From an uncultured Pseudomonadota bacterium (lineage in GTDB: Bacteria; Pseudomonadota; Gammaproteobacteria; Natronospirales; CAVUBB01), in contig CAVUBB010000001.1 of the NCBI GenBank assembly GCA_963739695.1, positions 34,967-98,966 on the forward strand: DNA of 64,000 bases, in the 5' to 3' direction. The notes under the pieces are model-generated. The model saw only the letters and a program-made list of their open reading frames with translations, was not told the origin of the DNA and searched no databases. This document shows positions 774-54,784 of the stretch, one piece after another. Numbering within the stretch: position 1 is the stretch's first letter; each line of letters begins with the position of its first letter. The position numbers were made by a program, and so were the translations under genes.

Positions 774-1195
774 CTACGAAGCCGTTTGCGGCACCGTGAG
801 CGCAGCCCTCTTCGTCGTCTCCCGTGCTTGCGTGTCGGAGAGACAGATGCAGTCACGTTTCCCATCCGTTGAGGAGTCTTCGGCCCAGAAACCCGCCTAC
901 GGTGGATCTTTCGGAATGGCAGTAAGTCGCGCTGCCGGCCGGAACCGTCCAGCGTACGCGCGCCATCGGGCGCACGGTGAATATCACGTTCGACAAACAA
1001 GCCGCCGAAACGATTTTCGTCCGAGACGATCGATGATCCATCGATAGCGGGGCCGATCCGGGCTGCGTGCCGGTGGCTACTTTTTACGCATTTAAGCGCG
1101 TTCAAATATTCACCCCGGGTTGGCATCTCGCTCCCGCTTCTTCTAGACTCCTATAGCCCAATTTGGGGAGGCGTTCCGAGAACGTCTTGTGAGGG

Positions 1196-1288
1196 GGGCT
1201 TAGAAAAAAGGCCAAGCCGTCGTGAGGCGGTGTCGCAAAGCCAAGGATCTCGCCGGGGAGGATGAGACAGCCAGGCTGCCAAAAGTCC
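1196..1288 (+). promoter_or_regulatory. Candidate c-di-GMP-I (GEMM-I) riboswitch aptamer in the leader of the S8 protease gene
   Basis: Segment 1210-1242 (GGCCAAGCCGUCGUGAGGCGGUGUCGCAAAGCC) has the same length as, and is colinear with, the V. cholerae Vc2 core as I remember it (GGCAAACCAUUCGAAAGAGUGGGACGCAAAGCC). The hairpin 1216-1221/1226-1231 is kept by compensatory changes and is capped by the GNRA loop GUGA. The 3' strand AGCCAGGCUGCCAA (1269-1282) is also present. Two further pairings fit: AGCC(1239-1242)/GGCU(1274-1277) and the outer stem GGGCUU(1196-1201)/AAGUCC(1283-1288). Confidence 0.5.
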
Positions 1289-1362
1289 GTGATGCTGGAT
1301 CGCCGCGCACACCTGTGCGCAATGGGGCGGTCCGTTCTGCCATCAATGGAGAGGACTGATCA

Positions 1363-3358: not shown

Positions 3359-3778
3359 TTGAAGCGTCGTCATGACCCATTGACCCCCGCCGAACGAAGT
3401 GAGCGTATGTCGCGAATTCGTGCGACAGACTCTCAGCCGGAGCTGGTTGTTCGGCGGCTTGTCCATGGATTGGGATACAGATATCGCTTACACTCCAAAG
3501 ACTTGCCGGGGAAACCCGATCTGGCATTCCGTTCAAGGAAGAAGGTGATCTTTGTTCACGGCTGCTTCTGGCACCAGCATGGATGCCGGCAGTATAGAAT
3601 GCCCCGCAGTCGAGAGGACTTCTGGGTACCGAAGCTGCAGAAGAACGTGCAACGTGACGCAGCGGCACAAGAGGCGCTGCGTCAAATGGGATGGCGCTTC
3701 CTCGTGATTTGGGAGTGTGAGTTACGAGACTTACCGGAAATCGAGCAACGAGTAATCGAATTCTTGGGCAACAGATGA
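3359..3778 (+). CDS. vsr: Very-short-patch repair endonuclease (Vsr)
   Basis: It is colinear with E. coli Vsr: RSERMSRIRATDSQPEL, LPGKPDLAF, VIFVHGCFWHQH, FWVPKLQKNVQRD and FLVIWECEL. The start is TTG at 3359, and the stop overlaps the methyltransferase start (ATGA at 3775-3778). Confidence 0.9.
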   Translation: MKRRHDPLTPAERSERMSRIRATDSQPELVVRRLVHGLGYRYRLHSKDLPGKPDLAFRSRKKVIFVHGCFWHQHGCRQYRMPRSREDFWVPKLQKNVQRDAAAQEALRQMGWRFLVIWECELRDLPEIEQRVIEFLGNR

Positions 3779-4950
3779 AAAAACAAAAGACATCGGTCGA
3801 GCTTTTTACGGGTGCGGGTGGATTGGCTATCGGGCTAGAGAACTCGGGGTGGAAACATCGAGCGCTGGTAGAACGAAACAGGGATGCGTGCGCGACGATT
3901 GAGCTAAACCGGCTCAATGGGCAAAAACAAGCCAAAAACTGGAAGCTAATTCCAGGCGATGTGCGCGAAATTTCCTATTCCGATGTCGCGGAGCATGTGG
4001 ATATGGTTGCGGGAGGCCCTCCTTGCCAACCGTTTTCTTTGGGCGGGAAGCATCGAGCGTACAACGATGCTCGCGATATGTTTCCGGAAGCCGTACGAGC
4101 GGTCCGAGAGCTTCAGCCAACCTGCTTTCTCTTTGAGAACGTAAAAGGCCTGCTTCGACAAAGTTTCTCCACATACTTCAACTACATTCTTTTGCAGCTT
4201 GCACACCCAACGGTGGTCCGGAGACCCGGAGACAGCTGGCAGAATCACCTCGAAGCCTTGGAGAAGATCCACACGGGAGGAAAAGAGTCGGAATTGACCT
4301 ATCGTGTCGTGTTTCGGCTACTAAATGCAGCTGATTATGGCGTCCCGCAACATCGACACAGGGTGTTTATTGTTGGCTTTCGGAGCGACCTTGGAAAGGA
4401 GTGGAGCTTTCCACGTGCTAGCCACTCGTTTGACCGGCTTTTGTGGGAGCAATGGGTATCTGGCTCCTACTGGGATGAACACAAGATTGCGAAGCGCGCT
4501 CGGCCCAAAATCAATCCACGCTATATCAAGCGCATTTCTGAACTAGAGACGGATTTTTTCCTTCACCCCCCTCCTGGCGAACGCTTTCTAACCGTCCGCG
4601 ATGCTCTGAAAGGTCTTCCTAATCCAGTGACGAAGCCTGACGAAGAATGGAATCATGTGTTCAGGCCCGGAGCCCGCCCTTATCCGGGCCACACTGGCAG
4701 CCTGTTGGATGAACCATCGAAGGCGTTGAAGGCTGGAGATCACGGAGTGCCGGGTGGCGAAAACATGATGGCATTGCCTGACGGAAGCTATCGCTATTAC
4801 ACCGTACGAGAAAGCGCCAGAATTCAAACTTTCCCGGATGATTATTTGTTCTCTGGGTCCTGGTCCGAGGCAATGCGGCAATTGGGTAACGCTGTGCCTG
4901 TTCAGTTGTCACAGGTAGTAGGCCACAGCATCCGCGCACAGTTGGTGTGA
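3775..4950 (+). CDS. DNA (cytosine-5)-methyltransferase
   Basis: It carries the C5-MTase motifs I (FTGAGGLAIG), IV (GGPPCQPFS), VI (ENVKGL), VIII (QHRHRVFIVG), IX (TVRESARIQTFPDDY) and X (GNAVPVQL). Confidence 0.95.
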   Translation: MKKQKTSVELFTGAGGLAIGLENSGWKHRALVERNRDACATIELNRLNGQKQAKNWKLIPGDVREISYSDVAEHVDMVAGGPPCQPFSLGGKHRAYNDARDMFPEAVRAVRELQPTCFLFENVKGLLRQSFSTYFNYILLQLAHPTVVRRPGDSWQNHLEALEKIHTGGKESELTYRVVFRLLNAADYGVPQHRHRVFIVGFRSDLGKEWSFPRASHSFDRLLWEQWVSGSYWDEHKIAKRARPKINPRYIKRISELETDFFLHPPPGERFLTVRDALKGLPNPVTKPDEEWNHVFRPGARPYPGHTGSLLDEPSKALKAGDHGVPGGENMMALPDGSYRYYTVRESARIQTFPDDYLFSGSWSEAMRQLGNAVPVQLSQVVGHSIRAQLV

Positions 4951-4951
4951 A

Positions 4952-5614
4952 ATGAGCAAAGACACACCATCCCGGATTCAGCCATTTAATCCACTGGACA
5001 AGAAGAACCTTGGCGACAGCGTTGCAGAGGCCATGCTTCATCAGCCGGTCGGAAATCTTCCGCCCGATCCATTTATAGGTGCTGGCATATATGCCATCTA
5101 TTACATCGGCGATTTCGACCTGTACAGCCAAGTTTCTGAACTAAACGTTGACGACAGCTACTCTTGGCCGATCTATGTAGGAAAGGCAGTCCCGGCCGGG
5201 GCAAGGAAAGGCGGATTCGGCCTTGGCGCCGACCCTAAGCAAGTGTTGTATCGGCGTTTAGTAGAGCATGCTGCTTCGATCGAGCAAGCCGAAAATCTGG
5301 ATATCGCTCATTTCAAGTGCCGCTTCTTGGTTGTCGACGATATTTGGATACCGCTGGCTGAGTCGCTCCTAATAGAAACCTATCATCCGCTGTGGAACCG
5401 CAAGATTGATGGTTTCGGGAATCATGACCCCGGCAAAGGCCGCCACAACCAACAGCGATCTCCTTGGGACACGCTGCACCCTGGCCGCCCTTGGGCAGAG
5501 CGGCTTCGTCCCTCCGCGAATAGCCTGAACAAAATCGAGGAGGAAGCCGGTGTATATCTCACAACGACACGCCGGAGAATTGACGCCCAACAAGGCGCTG
5601 CAGGGGACGTTTGA
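4952..5614 (+). CDS. GIY-YIG type II restriction endonuclease, Eco29kI-like
   Basis: It starts 1 nt after the methyltransferase stop. The GIY-YIG signature is GIYAIYYIG ... WPIYVGKAVPAGARKGG. The size (220 aa) and layout match my recollection of the Eco29kI family. Confidence 0.75.
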   Translation: MSKDTPSRIQPFNPLDKKNLGDSVAEAMLHQPVGNLPPDPFIGAGIYAIYYIGDFDLYSQVSELNVDDSYSWPIYVGKAVPAGARKGGFGLGADPKQVLYRRLVEHAASIEQAENLDIAHFKCRFLVVDDIWIPLAESLLIETYHPLWNRKIDGFGNHDPGKGRHNQQRSPWDTLHPGRPWAERLRPSANSLNKIEEEAGVYLTTTRRRIDAQQGAAGDV

Positions 5615-7912: not shown

Positions 7913-8506
7913 ATGAAAAGGCTGTTGTTGCTGGTTTTGACCGCCTTGCTCGTGACCTCATGCCAGACGATCCCGCCGCCGACGGTCCGCCCGTTTGCCG
8001 ACAGCCATGATTGGGTGCTCGTCGAGAGCCTCACCTACCAGATAGGTAACAGCGGACTATCGATCACGGTGCCGAAAGGTTTCGTTACCGATTTCGCGAG
8101 CATTCCCAAGCCGCTCTGGTCGCTCGGGCTTTCGCCCTATGGCCGCTACAGCAAGGCGGCGATCATCCATGATTATCTCTATTGGGCTCAGGGCTGTACG
8201 AAAGAACAGGCCGACAACATCCTCATGATCGCGATGAAAGAGAGCGGCGTAAGTCGCTTCAGGGCAGGGACGATCTATGAAGGGGTGCATGTCGGCGGTA
8301 GATCGTCATGGGCGGCGAATGCCGAAGAGCGCAGACGCCAGCTTCCCCGGGTCATCCCTTCAAACTACCTGGATATCCCCAGTGATGCGACCTGGTCTGA
8401 ATACAGGCACACGCTCGAAGAGTCCAAGGTGAAGGATCCGGCATTCCCCTCCACTCCGCCCTACTGCAAGCTTGGCGACAGCCGCGATATTCCAGAACAC
8501 GGATGA
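7913..8506 (+). CDS. DUF1353-like lipoprotein
   Basis: It has a lipoprotein signal MKRLLLLVLTALLVTSC. The core GFVTDFASIPKPLW ... AAIIHDYLYW matches the DUF1353 pattern (TD.ASIP ... HD.LY). Confidence 0.65.
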   Translation: MKRLLLLVLTALLVTSCQTIPPPTVRPFADSHDWVLVESLTYQIGNSGLSITVPKGFVTDFASIPKPLWSLGLSPYGRYSKAAIIHDYLYWAQGCTKEQADNILMIAMKESGVSRFRAGTIYEGVHVGGRSSWAANAEERRRQLPRVIPSNYLDIPSDATWSEYRHTLEESKVKDPAFPSTPPYCKLGDSRDIPEHG

Positions 8507-8642
8507 GATGCCGGCAATCAGGGCGAAGGCCACGGTTTGGGTCTGCCCGGCGCTTGCAGTAACCTATAGCGCTGATCGCCATTCCAGTAGTTCCCTCTGG
8601 CGCTCTTGTAGCGCCTTTGATTTCAATCACTTGGAGGTTCCC

Positions 8643-10697
8643 ATGAGATCGGTGATTGCCGGATTTTTGTTGGTGGCTGCAGGCGGTGTCGCCGCGGCGG
8701 CGACCCATCCCTTCACGGCCAGGGATCTGGCGATGATGGATCGCGTGGGCGCGCCGGTGGTCTCGCCGGACGGGAACACGGCGGCGTTCTCGGTGCGTTC
8801 GACGGACTGGGACGCGAACAAGGGCGTGCACAGTCTGTGGACGGTGCCGGTGGCAGGCGGCGAGGCGCACGAGATCGTGAGCGCGAAGATCGGCGCCACG
8901 GACCCGCACTTCTCGGCTGACGGCAAGGTGATCTACTTCCTGGCTCCGATCAAGGATGTGAACGCGCTCTGGCGGGTGCCGGCCGCGGGCGGCAAGGCGG
9001 AAGTGGTGAGTTCTCTGCCGCTGGATATCAATACCTATCGCATCTCTCCCGATGGCAAGACGATCCTGCTCTCGGTCGATGTGTTCGAGGATTGTCCGCT
9101 CAAGAGCGCGCTGGAGTGCTCGGCAGACCGCCTGCAGGCGCGCAAGGACAGCAAGGCCACGGGCATGCTGTACAAGCGGCTGTTCGTGCGCCACTGGAAT
9201 GTGTGGATGGACGGGCGCCGTTCGCAGCTGTTCACGGCCAGCCTGAGCGATGACGGCAAACTGGGCACGCTGCACTGGATCACCCACGGTATCGACGGCG
9301 ACACGCCTTCCAAGCCCTGGGGTGACGCTTCCGAGTTCGTGTTCTCGCCGGACAGCAAGACGGTGTATTTCGATGTGCGCATCGCCGGGCACAGCGAGCC
9401 GTGGTCAACGAATTTCGATGTCTATTCCGTGCCGGCCGATGGCTCGGCCGCACCGAAGAACCTGACCGCTGCGAACAAGGCCTGGGATGCCTACCCGGTG
9501 GTCTCGCATGATGGCAAGACGCTCTATTATCTCGCCATGAAGACGCCGGCTTTCGAGGCCGACCGCTTCGGTATCATGGCGCTGGATCTGGCCAGCGGCA
9601 AACGCCATGAGGTGGATCCAAACTGGGACCGCTCGGCCGGGCCGATGGCGCTCTCCGCAGACGGCAAGACGCTCTACACCACGGTGGACGACAACGGTGA
9701 TCACGCGCTGTTCGCGGTGGACGTCGCTTCGGGCAAGGCCACGCATCTGGTGGGTAGCGGCAAGGTGACCGGCTTCGAGCTGGCGGGCGCCAACATCGTG
9801 CTCGGCCGCGAAGACTTCCAGCATCCGGCCGATCTGTATCGCTTGCACCGCGGCAAGCTGGCCCAGATCACGCACTTCAACGCGAAGCGTTTGAGCAAGA
9901 TCGCCTTCGGCGATGCCCAGTGGTTCACGTTCAAGGGCTGGAACGGCGATACCGTGCAGGGCTATGTGATGAAGCCGGTGGGCTACAAGGCGGGGCACAA
10001 ATACCCGGTGGCCTTTCTGGTGCATGGCGGCCCGCAGGGGTCATGGACCAACGAGTTCCACTACCGCTGGAATCCGGAGACCTATGCGGGACAGGGCTTC
10101 GCGGTGGTGGCCATCAACTTCCATGGTTCCACCGGCTATGGCCAGGCCTTCACCGATGCCATCAGCCAGCACTGGGGCGATCGCCCGCTGGAAGATCTGC
10201 AGAAGGGCTGGACGGCCGCGCTCTCTCAGTTTTCGTATCTCGACGGCGACCGCGCCTGCGCGCTGGGCGCGAGCTATGGCGGCTACATGGTGTACTGGAT
10301 GGCCGGGGTCTGGAACCAGCCCTGGAAGTGTCTGGTGGACCATGACGGCGTGTTCGATTCGCGCATGATGTATTACGCCACCGAAGAGCTCTGGTTCGAA
10401 GAGCACGAGAACGGCGGCACACAGTACGACCACCCGGCGAACTACGAGAAGTTCAACCCGCTGAACCATGTGAAGGACTGGAAGGATCCGATGCTGATCA
10501 TCCACAGCGACAACGACTTCCGCATCCCCATCACGCAGGGCCTGGGCGCGTTCACCGCGTTGCAGCGCCAGGGCATCCCCAGCGAATATCTGCGTTACCC
10601 GGACGAGACCCACTTCGTCTCCAAGCCGCGCAACAGCGTGCAGTGGCACCACATCGTGAATGCCTGGATCGAGAAGTGGACCAAGGCGGAAAAATAG
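8643..10697 (+). CDS. S9 family serine peptidase (prolyl oligopeptidase / dipeptidyl-peptidase type), secreted
   Basis: It has a signal peptide (MRSVIAGFLLVAAGGVAAAA), N-terminal propeller repeats (SPDG motifs) and a C-terminal alpha/beta hydrolase domain with GASYGGYM, SDNDFRIP and DETHF. Confidence 0.9.
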   Translation: MRSVIAGFLLVAAGGVAAAATHPFTARDLAMMDRVGAPVVSPDGNTAAFSVRSTDWDANKGVHSLWTVPVAGGEAHEIVSAKIGATDPHFSADGKVIYFLAPIKDVNALWRVPAAGGKAEVVSSLPLDINTYRISPDGKTILLSVDVFEDCPLKSALECSADRLQARKDSKATGMLYKRLFVRHWNVWMDGRRSQLFTASLSDDGKLGTLHWITHGIDGDTPSKPWGDASEFVFSPDSKTVYFDVRIAGHSEPWSTNFDVYSVPADGSAAPKNLTAANKAWDAYPVVSHDGKTLYYLAMKTPAFEADRFGIMALDLASGKRHEVDPNWDRSAGPMALSADGKTLYTTVDDNGDHALFAVDVASGKATHLVGSGKVTGFELAGANIVLGREDFQHPADLYRLHRGKLAQITHFNAKRLSKIAFGDAQWFTFKGWNGDTVQGYVMKPVGYKAGHKYPVAFLVHGGPQGSWTNEFHYRWNPETYAGQGFAVVAINFHGSTGYGQAFTDAISQHWGDRPLEDLQKGWTAALSQFSYLDGDRACALGASYGGYMVYWMAGVWNQPWKCLVDHDGVFDSRMMYYATEELWFEEHENGGTQYDHPANYEKFNPLNHVKDWKDPMLIIHSDNDFRIPITQGLGAFTALQRQGIPSEYLRYPDETHFVSKPRNSVQWHHIVNAWIEKWTKAEK

Positions 10698-36028: not shown

Positions 36029-36102
36029 TGGGGGATCGTCTAGCGGTAGGACTACGGACTCTGACTCCGTCAACCCAGGTTCGAATCCTGGTCCCCCAGC
36101 CA
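36029..36102 (+). tRNA. tRNA-Gln (anticodon CUG), CCA encoded
   Basis: I folded the cloverleaf by hand. The acceptor stem pairs TGGGGGA with TCCCCCA. The anticodon arm is ACGGA-CTCTGAC-TCCGT. The T arm is CCAGG-TTCGAAT-CCTGG. The discriminator is G, followed by CCA. Confidence 0.9.
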
Positions 36103-40063: not shown

Positions 40064-40260
40064 GGGGAGCATCTCCCGCCAGTGCCGTTATGGGCTTTCG
40101 CCCTTGAACCAGAGGTTCAGGTGGGAACGGCGTGGGCGCCTCAGGCTTTCCGCTACAAGGCGGACATGCACACCGGCATCCCTGTACACGCTCCCGGGGT
40201 AATTGATTAGGCTCAAAGAGTATACCCAGCCCGTATCGAACACCGCAGGAGATGCTGTAT
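40064..40260 (-). ncRNA. ssrS: 6S RNA
   Basis: It sits in the conserved position between zapA and the 5-FTHF cyclo-ligase gene. The minus-strand transcript has a closing stem AGCAUCUCC ... GGAGAUGCU. Its 3' motif CCUGAACCUCUGGUUCAAGGGCGAAAGCCC resembles E. coli CCUUGAACCAAGGGUUCAAGGGUUACAGCC. The ends are approximate. Confidence 0.8.
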
Positions 40261-41724: not shown

Positions 41725-43032
41725 ATGACTCGCCAGGAATTCGCCCGCCGCCGCCGCCAGCTGATGCGCATGATGGGCAATGACGCCATCGCCATCATCC
41801 CCGCCGCGCCGGAAAAGATTCGCAACCGGGACGTCGCCCATCGCTACCGCCAGGACAGCGATTTCCAGTACCTCACGGGCTTCCCGGAGCCTGAGGCGGT
41901 CGCCGTGCTCGTCCCCGGACGCAAACAGGCCGACTACATCCTCTTCTGCCGCGATCGCGATCCCTTGCGCGAGACCTGGGATGGGCGGCGCGCCGGTCCG
42001 GAAGGTGCCTGCCGCGACTATGGCGCCGCCGATGCCTTCCCCATCGGCGATATCGACGACATCCTGCCCGGGCTCATGGAACAACGCAGTTGCGTGTACT
42101 ACACGATGGGCGTGCACCCGGAATTCGACAAGCAGGTGATCCGCTGGGTGAACGAACTCAAGACGCAAGCGGGGCGCGGCAAGCACGCGCCGTACGAGTT
42201 CGTCTCCCTGGAACACCTGTTGCACGACATGCGCCTGTACAAGAGCAAGGCCGAGGTGGCGACCATGCGCCGCGCCGCGCGCATCTCCGTGGCCGCGCAC
42301 CTGCGCGCCATGCGCGCCTGCAAGCCGGGGCGTTTCGAATACGAGATCGAGGCCGAGCTGCTGCACGAGTTTCGCCGCCACGGCGCGGATACCGCGTATG
42401 CCTCCATCGTCGGCGGTGGCGCCAATGCCTGCATCCTTCACTACATCGAGAACGACGCCCGCCTGAACGACGGCGATCTGTTGTTGATCGATGCGGGTGC
42501 GGAATATGAATGCTATGCCTCCGACGTCACCCGCACTTTCCCGGTGAGCGGGCGCTATTCTCCCGAACAGCGCGCGATCTACGAACTCGTGCTCAAGGCC
42601 CAGCTTGCCGCCATCGACAAGTGCCGTGCGGGTGCGCACTGGAACGAGCCGCATCTGGCGGCAGTGAGAGTGCTCACGGCCGGGCTGGTGAAGCTGGGCA
42701 TCCTCAAGGGCGCGGTGCCCAAACTGATCAAGGAAGAAGCGTACAAGCCCTATTACATGCACCGCACCGGACATTGGCTGGGCATGGATGTGCACGATGT
42801 CGGCGATTACAAACTCGGCGACCAGTGGCGCGAACTCGAGCCCGGCATGGTGCTCACCGTGGAGCCGGGTCTCTACATCCCGGCCAACAGCAAGGGCGTG
42901 GCGAAAAAATGGTGGGATATCGGCGTGCGTATCGAGGACGATGTACTGGTGACGCGCGGCGAGCCCGATGTCCTGAGCGGCGATCTCATCAAGGACCCCG
43001 ATGAGATCGAAGCTCATATGGCGGTGGCCTGA
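41725..43032 (+). CDS. pepP: Xaa-Pro aminopeptidase
   Basis: M24B blocks are present: YRQDSDFQYLTGF, DLLLIDAG, HRTGHWLGMDVHD, LTVEPGLY and GVRIEDDV. Confidence 0.95.
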   Translation: MTRQEFARRRRQLMRMMGNDAIAIIPAAPEKIRNRDVAHRYRQDSDFQYLTGFPEPEAVAVLVPGRKQADYILFCRDRDPLRETWDGRRAGPEGACRDYGAADAFPIGDIDDILPGLMEQRSCVYYTMGVHPEFDKQVIRWVNELKTQAGRGKHAPYEFVSLEHLLHDMRLYKSKAEVATMRRAARISVAAHLRAMRACKPGRFEYEIEAELLHEFRRHGADTAYASIVGGGANACILHYIENDARLNDGDLLLIDAGAEYECYASDVTRTFPVSGRYSPEQRAIYELVLKAQLAAIDKCRAGAHWNEPHLAAVRVLTAGLVKLGILKGAVPKLIKEEAYKPYYMHRTGHWLGMDVHDVGDYKLGDQWRELEPGMVLTVEPGLYIPANSKGVAKKWWDIGVRIEDDVLVTRGEPDVLSGDLIKDPDEIEAHMAVA

Positions 43033-48968: not shown

Positions 48969-50993
48969 ATGCCGGCCGATCCCCAGCCACACAACTCTCT
49001 CGGTGCAGAGCCGAGCCTCTATCTGCGCCAGCACGCGGACAATCCGGTGCACTGGCATCCGTGGAGCGAAGCGGCGCTGGCCGAAGCCCGGCGCACGGGC
49101 AGGCCCATCCTGCTTTCCATCGGCTATGCGGCCTGTCACTGGTGCCATGTGATGGCGCACGAGTCTTTCGAAGACCCGGCTACCGCGAAGTTGATGAACG
49201 CGCACTTCGTAAATATCAAGGTGGATCGCGAAGAACGGCCCGATCTCGATCGCACCTATCAGCTCGCACACCAGCTCATCACCGGACGCCCCGGCGGGTG
49301 GCCGTTGACGCTGTTTCTCGACCCCGACGATCTTGCGCCGTTCTTCGCCGGTACCTATTTCCCGGCAGATGCGCGCTACGGCATGCCCGCATTCACCACG
49401 GTGCTCGAACGCGTTGCCGAATGGTATGCCGCGGCCGGCGCTGAGCGGGCCGACATAGCGGCGCGTGTGCGCTCCGCGCTCGAGGAGATCGCACGTGCCG
49501 AGCCGGCCGCGCTCGATGCCTGCGCCTGGCGCGACGCCGCCGTCGCGGAACTGGCGGCCCAGTTCGACCGGGAACATGCCGGCTTCGGTCGCGCACAGAA
49601 ATTTCCGCGTGCTCCCGCACTCGAGCTGCTGCGTACCTCGAGTCGGGACACGCGCATGGCCGAGATATCGGAACGGACTCTGCACGCGATGGCGCGGGGC
49701 GGTGTGCACGATCATGTCGGGGGCGGCTTCTTCCGCTATACCGTCGATCGCGAGTGGGAGATCCCGCATTTCGAAAAGATGCTGTATGACAACGCATTGC
49801 TGCTGGGTCTGTACGCACAAGCGTGGCGCGAGAGGCCGACACCTGAACATGCCGATGCAGCGCGCGGTATCGTGCGCTGGGTGCGGGCCGAGATGCGCGC
49901 GCCGGGGGGCGCGTTCTATTCCAGCCTGGATGCCGACAGCGCCGGCGGGGAAGGCGCCTATTACACTTGGACTCCGACCGAGATCGAGGCGCTGCTCGCA
50001 CCGCCTGCGCGCAGCCTGGTGAGCGCGCGCTTCGGCCTGGACAGACCCGCGAATTTCGACGGTCGCTGGCATCTGCGGGTGGTGGACTCCGATGGCGTGC
50101 GTGCGGACGTATGTGGCGCCGACGCGCAGATACTTGCCGAGGCGATGGCACTATTGCGTCGTGCGCGTGCCGCACGCGCGCGTCCCCCGCGTGATGAGAA
50201 GGTGCTGGCGGCCTGGAACGCGATGCTGGTGGATGCGCTGGCACGGGCCGGCGAGATATTTACCGAACCGGAATGGGTCGTGCTCGCCAGGACGGCTTTC
50301 GACTTCCTGCGCGCGAAACTGTGGCGCGACAGCACACTGTTCGCCGTGTGGGCCGGCGGCAAGGCCTATAACCCTGCTTATCTTGACGACTATGCCTGGA
50401 TGCTACGCGCGAGTCTTAGCCTGCTGGAGCGGCGCTGGTGCGGCGACGACCTTGCCTTCGCCTGCGCACTCGCCGATGCCCTGCTCGATCGCTTCGCGGA
50501 TGCCGACGACGGTGGCCTGTGGTTCACGGCGCGCGAGCAGCCCGTGCGCCTGGCGCGGCCGCGTGGCGGCATGGACGACGCCACACCGGCCGGGGCGGCG
50601 GTTGCAGCGTCGGCTCTATACCGTCTCGGCGAGCTCTGCGGCGATCTCCGCTATATGGAGCAGGCACGGCGCGCGCTGGAAGCGCTGGGCGGGCAGATCG
50701 CCGCGCAGCCGTCGGCGCATGCGGCGATGATCGGCGCGGCGCTGGAAGTGGATGGCGGACTGACCCAAGTGATCCTGCGCGGGGAGCCGGAGCATCTGGC
50801 CGAGTGGCGCACGGCGATCGCAGCGACACAGGCCAGGCCCGCAGTGTATGCGATTCCGGCCTCGGCCACGGATCTGCCGGCATATATCGCCGCGATGCCA
50901 TGCGCCGGTCCGGTCGCGGCCTATGTCTGTCGCGCAGGGCGGTGTTCGCCGCCGGTAGCCGAACTCGAGGCGGTGCTCAGGCAGCTGGCTTGA
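48969..50993 (+). CDS. Thioredoxin-domain (DUF255) / six-hairpin glycosidase-like protein (YyaL/SPATA20 family)
   Basis: The N-terminal block HWHPWSEAALAEARRTGRPILLSIGYAACHWCHVMAHESF is typical of DUF255, followed by an alpha-toroid-like region of about 450 aa. Confidence 0.8.
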   Translation: MPADPQPHNSLGAEPSLYLRQHADNPVHWHPWSEAALAEARRTGRPILLSIGYAACHWCHVMAHESFEDPATAKLMNAHFVNIKVDREERPDLDRTYQLAHQLITGRPGGWPLTLFLDPDDLAPFFAGTYFPADARYGMPAFTTVLERVAEWYAAAGAERADIAARVRSALEEIARAEPAALDACAWRDAAVAELAAQFDREHAGFGRAQKFPRAPALELLRTSSRDTRMAEISERTLHAMARGGVHDHVGGGFFRYTVDREWEIPHFEKMLYDNALLLGLYAQAWRERPTPEHADAARGIVRWVRAEMRAPGGAFYSSLDADSAGGEGAYYTWTPTEIEALLAPPARSLVSARFGLDRPANFDGRWHLRVVDSDGVRADVCGADAQILAEAMALLRRARAARARPPRDEKVLAAWNAMLVDALARAGEIFTEPEWVVLARTAFDFLRAKLWRDSTLFAVWAGGKAYNPAYLDDYAWMLRASLSLLERRWCGDDLAFACALADALLDRFADADDGGLWFTAREQPVRLARPRGGMDDATPAGAAVAASALYRLGELCGDLRYMEQARRALEALGGQIAAQPSAHAAMIGAALEVDGGLTQVILRGEPEHLAEWRTAIAATQARPAVYAIPASATDLPAYIAAMPCAGPVAAYVCRAGRCSPPVAELEAVLRQLA

Positions 50994-53829
50994 CCGCGAC
51001 GGCGGTGCGGCGGACGTAAGGATCCTGCAGCATGTCGCGCACCCAGCCTTGCGGGGTGTGCCGGATCATGTAGGTCGGCCAGTAACGCAGATCCAGCTTG
51101 AGCGTGATCACCTGTACCTGACCTTGCCAGTCCACGGTCTTTAAACGCACCGCTTCGCGGTCGTGCTTCTTGCTCACCACGTCGAGGAAGCTGTCGAGGC
51201 TCGGCGTCGGTTGGCCGTCCACCGCGACGATGCGCAGACCGGGCGCCAGCCCATAGCGACTGGCCGGACTGCCATAACTGAAGTAGCCCACCAGCACACC
51301 GGTTCGCGGGATACCGCGTTGGGCGGCCACGGCCCGGTGCGGCTTTTGCAGCAGCGCGCCGCCCCAGAGCAGGATCCGTTCCGTCCCGCGCCCGTCGAGT
51401 GCGTCGGTGGGGACCTCGAGCTCGTGCACTTTGCCGTCGCGCAGGATCGTGAGCTTCGCCACCGGCGTCTGACTCGCGCGTTCCATCTCGGCGAAGGTGT
51501 GGATGGGCCGGGCCGCCATGGCGAGCAGTATGTCACCGTCCTGCAGCATCTTTTCCGCCGGACTGCCCGCGGTGATTCGGACCACCGAGAGCAACTGTCT
51601 AAGATCTGGATCCGACACCTCGAAACGCTTCGCCCAGGCGGCGGGCAGACCGAGCTTGCGCGCGCTGGCGAGCGGCAGCACGGTGAATTCAGCGTCCAGC
51701 GTACGCAGCGGCGCGGCCCCGGGGAGCGCGAGCCGGGCGAGATCGCGAAGCAGGTAAGCGGGGATGCCGCTGGTGGTCTGGTGGATGCGCGAGCCACCCT
51801 GATAGGCGAAGCTCGCCCACATGGCGACGACGCGGCCGCGGCGGTCGGCGAGCACGCCGTCCACATCGTCGGGTGCGTTGACCACGCTGTAGGTCTCGAG
51901 ATTGGTATCGCGGAAGCGGAAGGTACGCGAGAGCGGGAACATCACCGGATCTTCGGAAGCGATCTGCGTGGCCTGACTGGCCAGCGTCTGGTCCGGCTTG
52001 AAGCCGATAACCCAGACGTCGTCGCCGGGCTGTGCCGTGCGCGTGGCGAAGCGCGCCGCGCGCACGGGCGTGTCGCCGAGCAGCTTCGGATCGTAGGAGA
52101 TCACCGCAAGATCGTGCAGCGGATGCACGTAGACCACCTTGCCCGGAATCTCCACCGATCCGGCAAAGGTCAGGTGCACATCGCCAAGGCCCACCGGCAC
52201 GGTGTTGCGGTCCACCGCCACCAGACCGTGGCGGGCATCGATGACGATACCGGTGCCGGCATAATGCGTGCTTTCGACGCCGTCCGGTTGGTAGGGCATG
52301 TCGAAGTTCACGAATACCAGCGAGGGCGCGAGCGCCTGTGCACGCGGATCGGCGTAGTGCGGGAATGTGACCGTCACCGGCTTGGGCGGCGCCACTTCGC
52401 CTGCTTTGGGCAGCGCGGTGCATGGCCAGGTTCCGGTGCCGTCGTCGCGCTCGCAGCGGCGCGCGGGAAACCAGCGCCGGTCCACGGTGATCGAGCCCAG
52501 GATCGGGTGCTGCGGGTCATCCGGCTCGAAGAAGCGCAGCCGTACCCGGGCACCATCGTCGAGCGTCTCCAGCGCGGCCTGCAGATCGTCGAGCGTATCC
52601 ACCGGCTTGCCATCGAAGGCCACCACCACATCGCCGCGCTCGATGCCGGCAGTGGAAAACGCATAGCCCGGATCGGCCACGAATACTCCCTTGGGGGCGA
52701 CGTTGAGACTGCGTGCCTGCTGGTAGGAAAGACGGTTCAATACGGCGCCGCCGAACTGCAGGAAACTCGCCGGCGAGATCGCGTGCAGGTCACGCACCGC
52801 CAGGTCGACGTGCATCGGCTTGCCGCCGCGCTCGATATCCAGACCCACCTTGTCGCCGACGTTGCCGTCGAGCGCATCTTCGAGCGGGTCGAACCGCGTC
52901 AGGGCGTGGCCGTCCACTCGCACCAGGATATCGCCCGGTTGCAGGCTGCCGTCCGCCGGGCCGCCGGGGATGACCTGGTCCACCACCAGCATCCCGGTCT
53001 GACGCGGGAAGGCTTTGCGCGTCGCGGCCTCGGTGGCGGGGCGCAGGCCGAGGCGGCGCAATTCGTCATAGGCCTGAAACGAGAATACCGTCTCGATGGT
53101 GCCGCGCGGGATCGGCTGGCGAGCCTGGATCAGGCGCAAGGCGCGGCGCACGCGTTCCAGAGGCAGGAAGAAACTGGACGCGGCACCCACGCGCGCGCCG
53201 GCATTCAGTGCGATCGCCTCGCCATCGATATTGACCACGGGTGAGCCGGAGGAGCCGCCCGAGGTGCCGGAGGCGGCCTGGTAATAGAACGTGTTGAAGT
53301 CGTTGTAACTGCCACGGCCGTAGTCGGGTGCTTCGCGATCAAGACGGGCGAGGGTGCCGCTGAGGATGGACAGCTGTTCGCCGGCGTCGTTGCCGACTAC
53401 GCGGATGTCTTCGCCGACGTGGGCATCTTCCGGAGCCAATGGCAGGCTCACCGGGTTGCTGAAATGCAGATCCTTCGGGTCGTAGTGGTAGAAGCCGAAG
53501 TCATGGACGGGATCGCGGTAGATCGGCGTGAGGGCGACTTCTTCGTGATTCTCGAAAACAGCTTCGGCGACGACCGGGCCTGGTTGTACGACATGCCGGT
53601 TGGTGAGGATGATGCCGCGCTTGGCGTCCACCACGAATCCGGTGGCCTGACCGCTCAGGTTCCATTCGGTGTCGAAGGCACGGGTGGCATCTACCCTGAT
53701 GCTGACCACCGCGCTCGAAACTCGATGCAAGGTCTTCGACCAGGCGTCGTCGATGCGGTCGGCGGCCAGCGCCGCCAGCGGCAGGAGCGAAAGGAGAGCG
53801 ACAGGAGTCGCACGGATCAGACGGCGCAT
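50977..53829 (-). CDS. Large secreted trypsin-like serine protease with multiple PDZ domains (Nma111/HtrA-like)
   Basis: It has a signal peptide (MRRLIRATPVALLSLLPLAALAA), catalytic motifs (TNRHVV, GTSGGSSGSPVV) and several PDZ-like segments. The start is set at ATG 53829 inside ORF 50977..54030. Confidence 0.85.
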   Translation of the reverse strand: MRRLIRATPVALLSLLPLAALAADRIDDAWSKTLHRVSSAVVSIRVDATRAFDTEWNLSGQATGFVVDAKRGIILTNRHVVQPGPVVAEAVFENHEEVALTPIYRDPVHDFGFYHYDPKDLHFSNPVSLPLAPEDAHVGEDIRVVGNDAGEQLSILSGTLARLDREAPDYGRGSYNDFNTFYYQAASGTSGGSSGSPVVNIDGEAIALNAGARVGAASSFFLPLERVRRALRLIQARQPIPRGTIETVFSFQAYDELRRLGLRPATEAATRKAFPRQTGMLVVDQVIPGGPADGSLQPGDILVRVDGHALTRFDPLEDALDGNVGDKVGLDIERGGKPMHVDLAVRDLHAISPASFLQFGGAVLNRLSYQQARSLNVAPKGVFVADPGYAFSTAGIERGDVVVAFDGKPVDTLDDLQAALETLDDGARVRLRFFEPDDPQHPILGSITVDRRWFPARRCERDDGTGTWPCTALPKAGEVAPPKPVTVTFPHYADPRAQALAPSLVFVNFDMPYQPDGVESTHYAGTGIVIDARHGLVAVDRNTVPVGLGDVHLTFAGSVEIPGKVVYVHPLHDLAVISYDPKLLGDTPVRAARFATRTAQPGDDVWVIGFKPDQTLASQATQIASEDPVMFPLSRTFRFRDTNLETYSVVNAPDDVDGVLADRRGRVVAMWASFAYQGGSRIHQTTSGIPAYLLRDLARLALPGAAPLRTLDAEFTVLPLASARKLGLPAAWAKRFEVSDPDLRQLLSVVRITAGSPAEKMLQDGDILLAMAARPIHTFAEMERASQTPVAKLTILRDGKVHELEVPTDALDGRGTERILLWGGALLQKPHRAVAAQRGIPRTGVLVGYFSYGSPASRYGLAPGLRIVAVDGQPTPSLDSFLDVVSKKHDREAVRLKTVDWQGQVQVITLKLDLRYWPTYMIRHTPQGWVRDMLQDPYVRRTAVAVKPAA

Positions 53830-53851
53830 CGCGACCTCCGTTGCCCCGAGT

Positions 53852-54784
53852 TCAGAAGCGGTAGTCGAAGGCGCGCTCGAACCGGTCCGCGAATTCCTCG
53901 GGCGTGAAATGATGGTTCTGGGTGCCGGCGTGTTCGATCTTGATCGAACCGAGCAGAGAGGCGATGTTGCCGGTGGTCTGCCAGTCCATGTCGTTGAGCA
54001 GACCATAGAGCAGGCCGGCGCGGTAGGCATCGCCGCAGCCGGTAGGATCGACCTCCACCTGCGCAGCCACCACGCCGATATCGGTGCGTCGGTTGTCGTG
54101 ATAGATGACCGAGCCCTTCGCGCCGCCGGTGATGATCAACGCATCCACTCGTTCCGCGATCTGGTAAGGGGTGAGCCCGGTGCGTTGATGCAGCAGCTCG
54201 CCTTCGTAATCGTTGACCGTGACCCATTTCGCCAGATCGATGAACGCGAGCAGTTCTTCGCCGTCGAACATGGGCAGACCCTGGCCCGGATCGAAGATGA
54301 AGGGTATGCCCGCAGCCGCGAACTGGTGAGCGTGATCGAGCATGCCGTCGCGCCCGTCGGGGGCGACGATACCGACGCTCACGCCGGCATCGGCCGGCAC
54401 TTCGTTGAGGTGCGAGGAATTCATCGCGCCCGGATGGAATGCCGTGATCTGATTATCGCTCAGGTCAGTGGTTATATAGGCTTGGGCGGTATAGGTATCG
54501 GGGACCTCGCGTATGAAGCGGCGGTCGATACCGTGGCGGTCCATCCATTCCGCATAGGCGGCGAAGTCGTTGCCCACAGTGCCCATCGGCCAGCCTTCGC
54601 CGCCCAGGAGCGCGAGGTTGTATGCGATATTGCCGGCGCAGCCGCCGAATTCCCGGCGCAGTTGCGGCACCAGGAACGAGACGTTGAGCATGTGGACCTT
54701 GTCGGGAAGGATGTGGTCCCGGAAACGGCCGTCGAACACCATGATGGTGTCGAAGGCGAGGGAACCGCAGATCAATGCCGACAT
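53852..54784 (-). CDS. PfkB-family carbohydrate/nucleoside kinase
   Basis: The blocks GGCAGNIAYNLALLG and the C-terminal anion-hole motif DPTGCGDAYRAG are present. The start is set at MSALICG (54784). Confidence 0.85.
   Translation of the reverse strand: MSALICGSLAFDTIMVFDGRFRDHILPDKVHMLNVSFLVPQLRREFGGCAGNIAYNLALLGGEGWPMGTVGNDFAAYAEWMDRHGIDRRFIREVPDTYTAQAYITTDLSDNQITAFHPGAMNSSHLNEVPADAGVSVGIVAPDGRDGMLDHAHQFAAAGIPFIFDPGQGLPMFDGEELLAFIDLAKWVTVNDYEGELLHQRTGLTPYQIAERVDALIITGGAKGSVIYHDNRRTDIGVVAAQVEVDPTGCGDAYRAGLLYGLLNDMDWQTTGNIASLLGSIKIEHAGTQNHHFTPEEFADRFERAFDYRF

Follow-up and report, generated by a model that had tools for sequence, protein, structure and literature searches.

In the original 2007 description of GEMM RNAs, which include the class I c-di-GMP riboswitches, 'subtilase (superfamily of extracellular peptidases)' is named among the gene associations, the linker between the two hairpins is said to be 'virtually always AAA', and a tetraloop receptor is found in only about half of GEMM-I members, those with GAAA loops, while it 'almost never' accompanies GYRA tetraloops (PMC1950547). 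In one design described there, the 5' half of a terminator overlaps the 3' side of the aptamer and the element acts as an ON switch (PMC1950547). Points of ligand contact are described for Vibrio cholerae. G20 and A47 are separated by 27 nt in both Vc2 and Vc1, with C44 placed 3 nt before A47 (PMC4744006). [quoted passage not shown]

How does a new locus from an uncultured gammaproteobacterium compare with these systems? The locus lies in a stretch of 64,000 nucleotides, here called the window (64 kb); coordinates are those of the window, and features are on the forward (+) strand unless marked (-). It resembles Vc2 in its architecture of two hairpins and a closing stem P1, in its AAA linker and in its equivalents of G20, A47, C92 and the C44-G83 pair. 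As in other members of Rfam family RF01051, the element is in the 5' UTR of a gene with an extracellular function, and subtilase is one of the original associations (PMC1950547). It differs from Vc2 in that the loop is GUGA (GYRA) and not GAAA, the 11-nt receptor is missing, as in a known receptor-less subclass, the A43 position is occupied by U, and the expression platform has no terminator. The host is gammaproteobacterial and belongs to neither of the orders mentioned in 2007, Vibrionales and Alteromonadales; its GcvPA protein is closest to those of uncultured Gammaproteobacteria and to those of Natronospira and Thioalkalivibrio at ~70-75% identity (~70-73% for these two as its nearest named relatives).

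Considered as a whole, the locus is very probably a functional c-di-GMP-I aptamer in the ~205-nt 5' UTR of an mRNA for a secreted S8 protease. The occurrence of GEMM before a subtilase was already reported in 2007; what is new is a further member, from a lineage that has no cultured relatives.

The aptamer, its leader and its gene

A search of the 64-kb window with 4227 Rfam families matched RF01051 (c-di-GMP-I) to positions 1200-1283 (+) with 54.1 bits and E 8.6e-8, where the gathering score is 35 bits. The match spans model positions 1-87 of 87, and a local search gives an equal score. It is the sole match of its clan in the window; RF01051 is the best family of clan CL00126 for this aptamer, over RF03167, and RF01786 (c-di-GMP-II) has zero matches at E<=10 in 700-1500. 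With a covariance model built in this analysis (R1), 1196-1288 scored 96.2 bits. The RF01051 match, the minimum free energy (MFE) fold and R1 together outline a complete aptamer at 1196-1288, including P1, and the defining features of RF01051 are present wherever tested, the optional tetraloop receptor excepted. Judged by these sequence comparisons, 1196-1288 is almost certainly a class I c-di-GMP riboswitch aptamer of the GYRA-loop subclass without receptor. A preliminary description, made by eye, had proposed a Vc2-like c-di-GMP-I aptamer here and suggested that both c-di-GMP families be searched; the proposal agrees with the outcome of these searches.

The 33-nt core at 1210-1242 (GGCCAAGCCGUCGUGAGGCGGUGUCGCAAAGCC) aligns without indels with Rfam model positions 11-43. 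Within it, the Rfam alignment and a check of pairing place a six-bp hairpin at 1216-1231 (1216-1221 with 1226-1231; pairs G-U, C-G, C-G, G-C, U-G and C-G) capped by the GYRA tetraloop GUGA (1222-1225) and flanked by a 2-bp stem, G1211-C1236 and C1212-G1235, with the loop CAA between. The AAA linker (A1237-A1239) joins the two hairpins. AGCC (1239-1242) is paired with GGCU (1274-1277), which is part of the conserved 3' strand AGCCAGGCUGCCAA at 1269-1282, and P1 consists of GGGCUU (1196-1201) with AAGUCC (1283-1288), 6 bp that include one G-U and form part of the MFE fold. The preliminary description had pointed to a 33-nt core with the length of that of Vc2, the hairpin with the pairs C-G, C-G, G-C, U-G and C-G and its GUGA cap, the 3' strand, the AGCC/GGCU pairing and the outer stem, all of which can be read directly in the sequence. 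It had failed to fold the second helix by hand.

This second helix (1239-1277; P2 in Weinberg 2007, P3 in crystal structures) does fold, and is seen both in the MFE structure of 1196-1288 and in comparative alignment A3, which is taken up below. Its strands AGCC/GGCU (1239-1242/1274-1277), GG/CC (1245-1246/1271-1272), UCUCG/UGAGA (1248-1252/1263-1267) and CC/GG (1253-1254/1260-1261) end in the loop GGGGA, and are interrupted by an internal loop AA/A and a bulged A1269-G1270; there is no tetraloop receptor. Folded alone, 1196-1288 adopts the canonical GEMM-I structure as its MFE (-30.5 kcal/mol). The receptor columns (CUAAG...UAUG) are deleted in the Rfam alignment of this aptamer, and receptor docking is thus lacking, but this does not disqualify it, because absence is expected with GYRA loops. 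In folding stability, neither 1190-1295 (z = 0.06) nor 1157-1390 (z = -0.90) stands out from shuffled sequence. Because these values are unremarkable, the case for the aptamer rests on the covariance model and the comparative data.

The leader had been taken as about 590 bp long, but this is the intergenic distance. In the orthologous locus L170, homology with the window extends from ~1094 to the coding region and the sequences further upstream are unrelated. A consensus scan shows a promoter-like site at 1120-1149, with -35 TTGGCA (1120-1125), an 18-nt spacer and -10 TAGACT (1144-1149); both hexamers are unchanged between the window and L170, and the spacer differs. A transcription start near 1156 is implied by this putative promoter. 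Given the start of the L170 homology and the promoter-like site, the transcribed leader is probably ~205 nt. Between the putative start and the aptamer is a hairpin at 1169-1187, AGGCGUUC-CGA-GAACGUCU, which is present in all folds (-6.7 kcal/mol). Its stem is retained in L170 although both strands have changed (ACGGGUUC...GAAUCCGU); the loop there contains an 11-nt insertion. The hairpin may stabilise the 5' end of the mRNA.

Other signals are found further upstream. A block just 5' of the -35 hexamer, ATTTAAGCnCGT...AATATTCACCCnGGG (1094-1119), is conserved in L170 as well and may represent an UP element or a binding site for a transcription factor. At 1061-1085 (+), 5' of the protease promoter, a terminator-like hairpin GGCTGCGTGCCGGTGGCT is followed by the T run ACTTTTTACG, and may end an upstream transcript. 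No open reading frame with a Pfam match was found in 774-1060.

The aptamer ends 74 nt before the ATG of the protease gene, on the same strand. The gene (1363-2718, +) encodes a 451-aa S8 (subtilisin-like) serine protease (Pfam PF00082, 170.7 bits) with an N-terminal signal sequence, the amino terminus MSKRWITGALGALAIAACGISAANAG being signal-peptide-like. Its triad D151, H189 and S393 (GTSMA) is invariant in 15 homologues. The secreted subtilisin-like protease of the preliminary description is recognised in this product, and the remark made there that GEMM-I elements precede genes of secreted proteins has its counterpart in the subtilase association of the 2007 paper (PMC1950547). The same amino terminus (1363-1440) contains a possible lipobox, IAAC, as well as an Ala-X-Ala site, both conserved in L170, and the protease could be a lipoprotein instead of being freely secreted.

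Several other constituents of the window can be mentioned. In a type II restriction-modification pair, a C5 cytosine DNA methylase is encoded at 3775-4950 and an endonuclease of the Eco29kI family at 4952-5614; because the G+C content of this stretch (3775-5614) is 0.53-0.57, lower than the ~0.62 of its flanks, the pair is probably an acquired island. Only two other Rfam matches are present, a 6S RNA at 40069-40254 (-) with 97.5 bits and a tRNA at 36029-36099 (+) with 61.4 bits. The 6S gene is near a TIGR02449-family open reading frame and pepP (41725-43032), a layout typical of Gammaproteobacteria. Two further putative proteases or peptidases score under their cut-offs, a Dpp5-like dipeptidyl peptidase at 8472-10697 (+; 442.9 bits, cut-off 900 bits) and a 1017-aa DegP/HtrA-like protein at 50977-54030 (-; 142.9 bits, cut-off 416 bits), and no GEMM-I match precedes either gene. 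When the 64 kb were scanned for motifs, no GGDEF turned up, and EAL, HD-GYP and PilZ gave loose matches only.

Recurrence of the aptamer in related loci

The window protease has one close relative (P0121, in the same 90% cluster); its other homologues are <=67% identical and come from several phyla. Loci of the nearest homologues and 160 more were fetched from metagenomes and GTDB genomes, and a scan of GTDB genomes with the window protease as single query found nothing. Searched for by exact sequence, the window protease had no record, and the orthologous leaders were taken from its homologues. A GEMM-I aptamer is located 5' of a homologous S8 gene in 12 other loci (L170, L001, L005, L006, L011, L014, L016, L019, L086, L093, L099 and L144). 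These aptamers were located with the R1 model, and each passes an Rfam gathering score independently. Most other homologous loci have no aptamer, including a 64%-identical gammaproteobacterial one (L002 to L004, L090). The association between aptamer and protease is therefore recurrent but not universal. L170, whose protease is at least 90% identical to that of the window, has the promoter, aptamer and platform in common with it.

The alignment of 16 sequences (A3) displays strong covariation, the comparison of related leaders that the preliminary description had recommended. Of the pair cells 93.4% are paired, and 12 of 18 pairs are changed on both sides, values that none of 500 shuffles reaches and that can be set beside the 22-43% paired with slid partners; since the sequences were aligned by fitting them to the model, these values lean somewhat towards the structure. 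The GUGA hairpin (helix 2 of A3) is 97.9% paired, with both-side changes in 4 of 6 pairs, and the second helix (helix 3) 89.4% paired, with such changes in 8 of 10. The sequences that make up P1 are unrelated from one locus to another, e.g. ACUG/CAGU, GGAGA/UCUCC and GUUCGU/GCGAAC.

In some loci the arrangement is repeated. A second GEMM-I aptamer is found 3' of the protease gene in L011 (1887-1995), L014 (2461-2568), L019 (2231-2324) and L129 (3057-3146), and in two of these, L019 and L129, a further S8 paralogue (27-37% identical to the protease of the window) comes after it, an arrangement suggestive of tandem modules of riboswitch and protease.

Read-out and direction of the switch

How might the aptamer act on the gene? 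A terminator scan between the aptamer and the ATG revealed no terminator-like site. Directly 3' of the aptamer, folds show a composite hairpin at 1297-1333 (GGAUCGCC/GGCGGUCC, -23.1 kcal/mol) built around GCGCAC-ACCU-GUGCGC (1305-1320), and it is the tip of this larger structure that the preliminary description had recorded as a hairpin without a U tract. The composite hairpin is kept in L170, where U1300C converts a G-U pair to G-C. The sequence that follows is not a U tract, either in the window (GUUCUGCC) or in L170 (GUUCCGCC). Because no intrinsic terminator follows the aptamer, translation initiation would be the likeliest read-out, and translational control of the protease can be proposed with moderate assurance from the modelled folds. 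Of the earlier preference for translational over terminator control, the lack of a terminator stands and the Shine-Dalgarno (SD) sequence does take part in predicted alternative pairings, which makes translational control plausible. The ribosome binding site had been placed at 1348-1354; the SD is in that region, but a core at 1351-1355 is more likely, the conserved candidate being GAGGA in the window and AAGGA in L170.

Two predicted structures compete around this core. A weak hairpin at 1334-1356 (-5.1 kcal/mol), seen in aptamer-forced folds, pairs GUUCU (1334-1338) with AGGAC (1352-1356) and CCA (1340-1342) with UGG (1347-1349), and covers the SD. In the unconstrained MFE, a long-range helix (1286-1350; duplex -7.8 kcal/mol) joins UCCGUGAUG (1286-1294) to CAUC(A)AUGGA (1341-1350); it takes three bases of the P1 3' strand and so excludes P1. 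Aptamer-forced and alternative folds are 1-2 kcal/mol apart, an arrangement to be expected if ligand binding decides the outcome.

In the scheme that we favour, c-di-GMP would be bound where the three helices meet, by G1210, A1237 and C1279, and P1, a weak outer stem (1196-1201 with 1283-1288), would thereby be locked. With P1 locked, 1334-1356 would fold on itself and cover the SD core (1351-1355); with P1 open, 1286-1294, i.e. the P1 3' strand and linker, would pair with 1341-1350, break the SD hairpin and leave the core freer. c-di-GMP would then lower translation of the protease. Direction is the step of this scheme that we infer most conditionally. There is a tentative lean towards OFF because forcing the aptamer lowers the predicted accessibility of the SD core, in the window as in L170. 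In the window, the predicted probability that 1351-1356 is unpaired falls from 0.35-0.47 to 0.20 when the aptamer is forced, and that for the SD core of L170 from 0.42-0.48 to 0.23, but in both the gap is small and is gone once more than ~15 nt of coding sequence are included. The SD is mostly paired in every predicted state. Both strands of the alternative helices are identical in L170, the only close orthologue, and covariation supports neither.

The same aptamer could act in the opposite sense, with c-di-GMP raising protease expression, and such an ON switch, though rather unlikely, is the best surviving of the other explanations. Without ligand, AGUCC (1284-1288) and UGAUG (1290-1294), from the free P1 3' strand and linker, would clamp GGACU (1353-1357) and CAUCA (1341-1345), so that the ribosome site would be hidden; once ligand is bound, nothing but the weak local hairpin of about -5 kcal/mol would be left, and ribosomes would open it. 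The bipartite 10-bp helix does exist among the predictions, ~2 kcal/mol from the aptamer fold, and the near-isoenergetic fold with a free P1 3' strand, in which AGUCC pairs with GGACU and hides the SD, points in this direction; the weakness of the local SD hairpin is also in its favour. In addition, the aptamer 3' strand serves as the 5' half of a terminator in L006, L011, L014, L016, L019, L093 and L099, which is the ON design of 2007 (PMC1950547). The GEMM-I ON switches of the terminator type (Weinberg 2007, Fig. 2B), here in Chloroflexota L093 and L099, represent the same subclass before homologous S8 genes. In L093 and L099 the aptamer 3' strand (ACCGCCGAA) becomes the 5' half of a hairpin, ACCGCCGAA-GCGAAC-UUCGGCGGUUUUUGUUU in L093, followed by a U run. 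The window, however, is without such a U tract and without the terminator design of these distant orthologues, and its ensembles give slightly lower SD-core accessibility with the aptamer forced.

Control could also be exerted on transcription or RNA stability, by Rho-dependent termination or by an atypical terminator at 1297-1333 gated by the aptamer, but this is distinctly improbable. The very stable hairpin directly 3' of the aptamer would suit such a role, and GGCGGUC (1326-1332) can pair with GGCUGCC (1274-1280) of the aptamer 3' strand (-10.1 kcal/mol), a pairing that echoes the terminators of the orthologues. Yet G1278A in L170 weakens that pairing, no U tract is present, the terminator scan was negative, and the 1297-1333 hairpin forms regardless of aptamer state in constrained folds. 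GGCUGCC/GGCGGUC, considered as a cryptic terminator-like competitor, was rejected on account of G1278A and the missing U tract.

The likely ligand and the meaning of the locus

The favoured scheme presupposes c-di-GMP as ligand. Binding-site positions of the window and L170 were read off the Rfam alignment and spacing. G1210 is the equivalent of G20 (Rfam alignment position 11, 27 nt before A1237), and the core CGCAAA (1234-1239), which is invariant in homologues, provides C1234 (C44), the ligand-contacting A1237 (A47) and the AAA linker (1237-1239). C1279, in the 'gCC' of the Rfam alignment, corresponds to C92, and its equivalent is kept in 17 of 17 aptamers. This assignment, 9 nt past the bulged G, follows the Vc2 sequence and agrees with the roles in the literature. 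The equivalent of the interhelical pair C44-G83 is C1234/G1270. The one normally conserved A that the preliminary description found replaced by U is U1233, the Vc2 A43 position, which proves to be variable among homologues. Because the ligand-contact positions are canonical and G1210 equals G20, the sequence points to a c-di-GMP signature, not one of cGAMP, from which ligand binding is inferred.

Orthologous aptamers vary in these respects. In the aptamers L019 523-618 and L093 1299-1399, position 20 is A, not G (AAAAA[A]GCAAA), which is the GEMM-Ib cGAMP/bispecific signature; L093 is Anaerolineales UBA2395. Eight aptamers in seven loci (L006 2291-2379, L011, L014, L016, L019, L099 and L129) are assigned to c-di-GMP-I-GGC (RF03167) above its gathering score, and in these eight the A47 position is occupied by A (GCAAAG), where the consensus has G (GCGAAg). 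Their assignment seems to be driven by architecture and not by the binding site.

Could the window aptamer, too, sense another cyclic dinucleotide, such as 3'3'-cGAMP, as GEMM-Ib RNAs do, or an unknown ligand, as has been proposed for variant families such as c-di-GMP-I-GGC? The A at position 20 in two orthologous leaders and the RF03167 assignments would speak for this. The window aptamer shares fold and clan with the GEMM-Ib 3'3'-cGAMP riboswitches (Geobacter Gs1761), and with RF03167 a GYRA loop, a P2 that lacks the receptor and a P1 that is part of the model. However, it has G in place of the defining A of GEMM-Ib at position 20, and, like the orthologues, A (GCAAAG) where the RF03167 consensus has G (GCGAAg), and RF01051 is its best family. 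Wild-type G20 Vc2 discriminates against cGAMP, with a KD of 10 uM compared with picomolar (PMC6140456). A different ligand is thus very improbable for this aptamer. That the element is a decayed relic or a chance match, to which an MFE z-score of ~0 and the absent tetraloop receptor might be turned, is scarcely credible in view of the E value of 8.6e-8, the functional positions, all of them intact, the near-identical sequence in L170 despite unrelated adjacent upstream sequence, and the normal absence of a receptor in GYRA-loop members (PMC1950547).

What, then, does the locus signify? Knowledge of the class is unchanged, because standard Rfam-based annotation would find this aptamer. A regulator and a likely signal, c-di-GMP, can be assigned to a secreted protease of an uncultured gammaproteobacterium, and a terminator-less platform is added to a class of riboswitches for which the logic in vivo has been tested in only a few species. 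A more speculative and rather doubtful proposal is that the cassette of aptamer and S8 gene persisted in, or moved across, several phyla (Gammaproteobacteria, Chloroflexota and Gemmatimonadota) while its read-out was rewired, an ON terminator in Chloroflexota giving way to a translational form here that has no terminator and may be OFF, and that in some orthologues, those with A20, the messenger may have changed as well. If such rewiring did take place, one enzyme family would be coupled to sessility signals in opposite senses, depending on the lineage.
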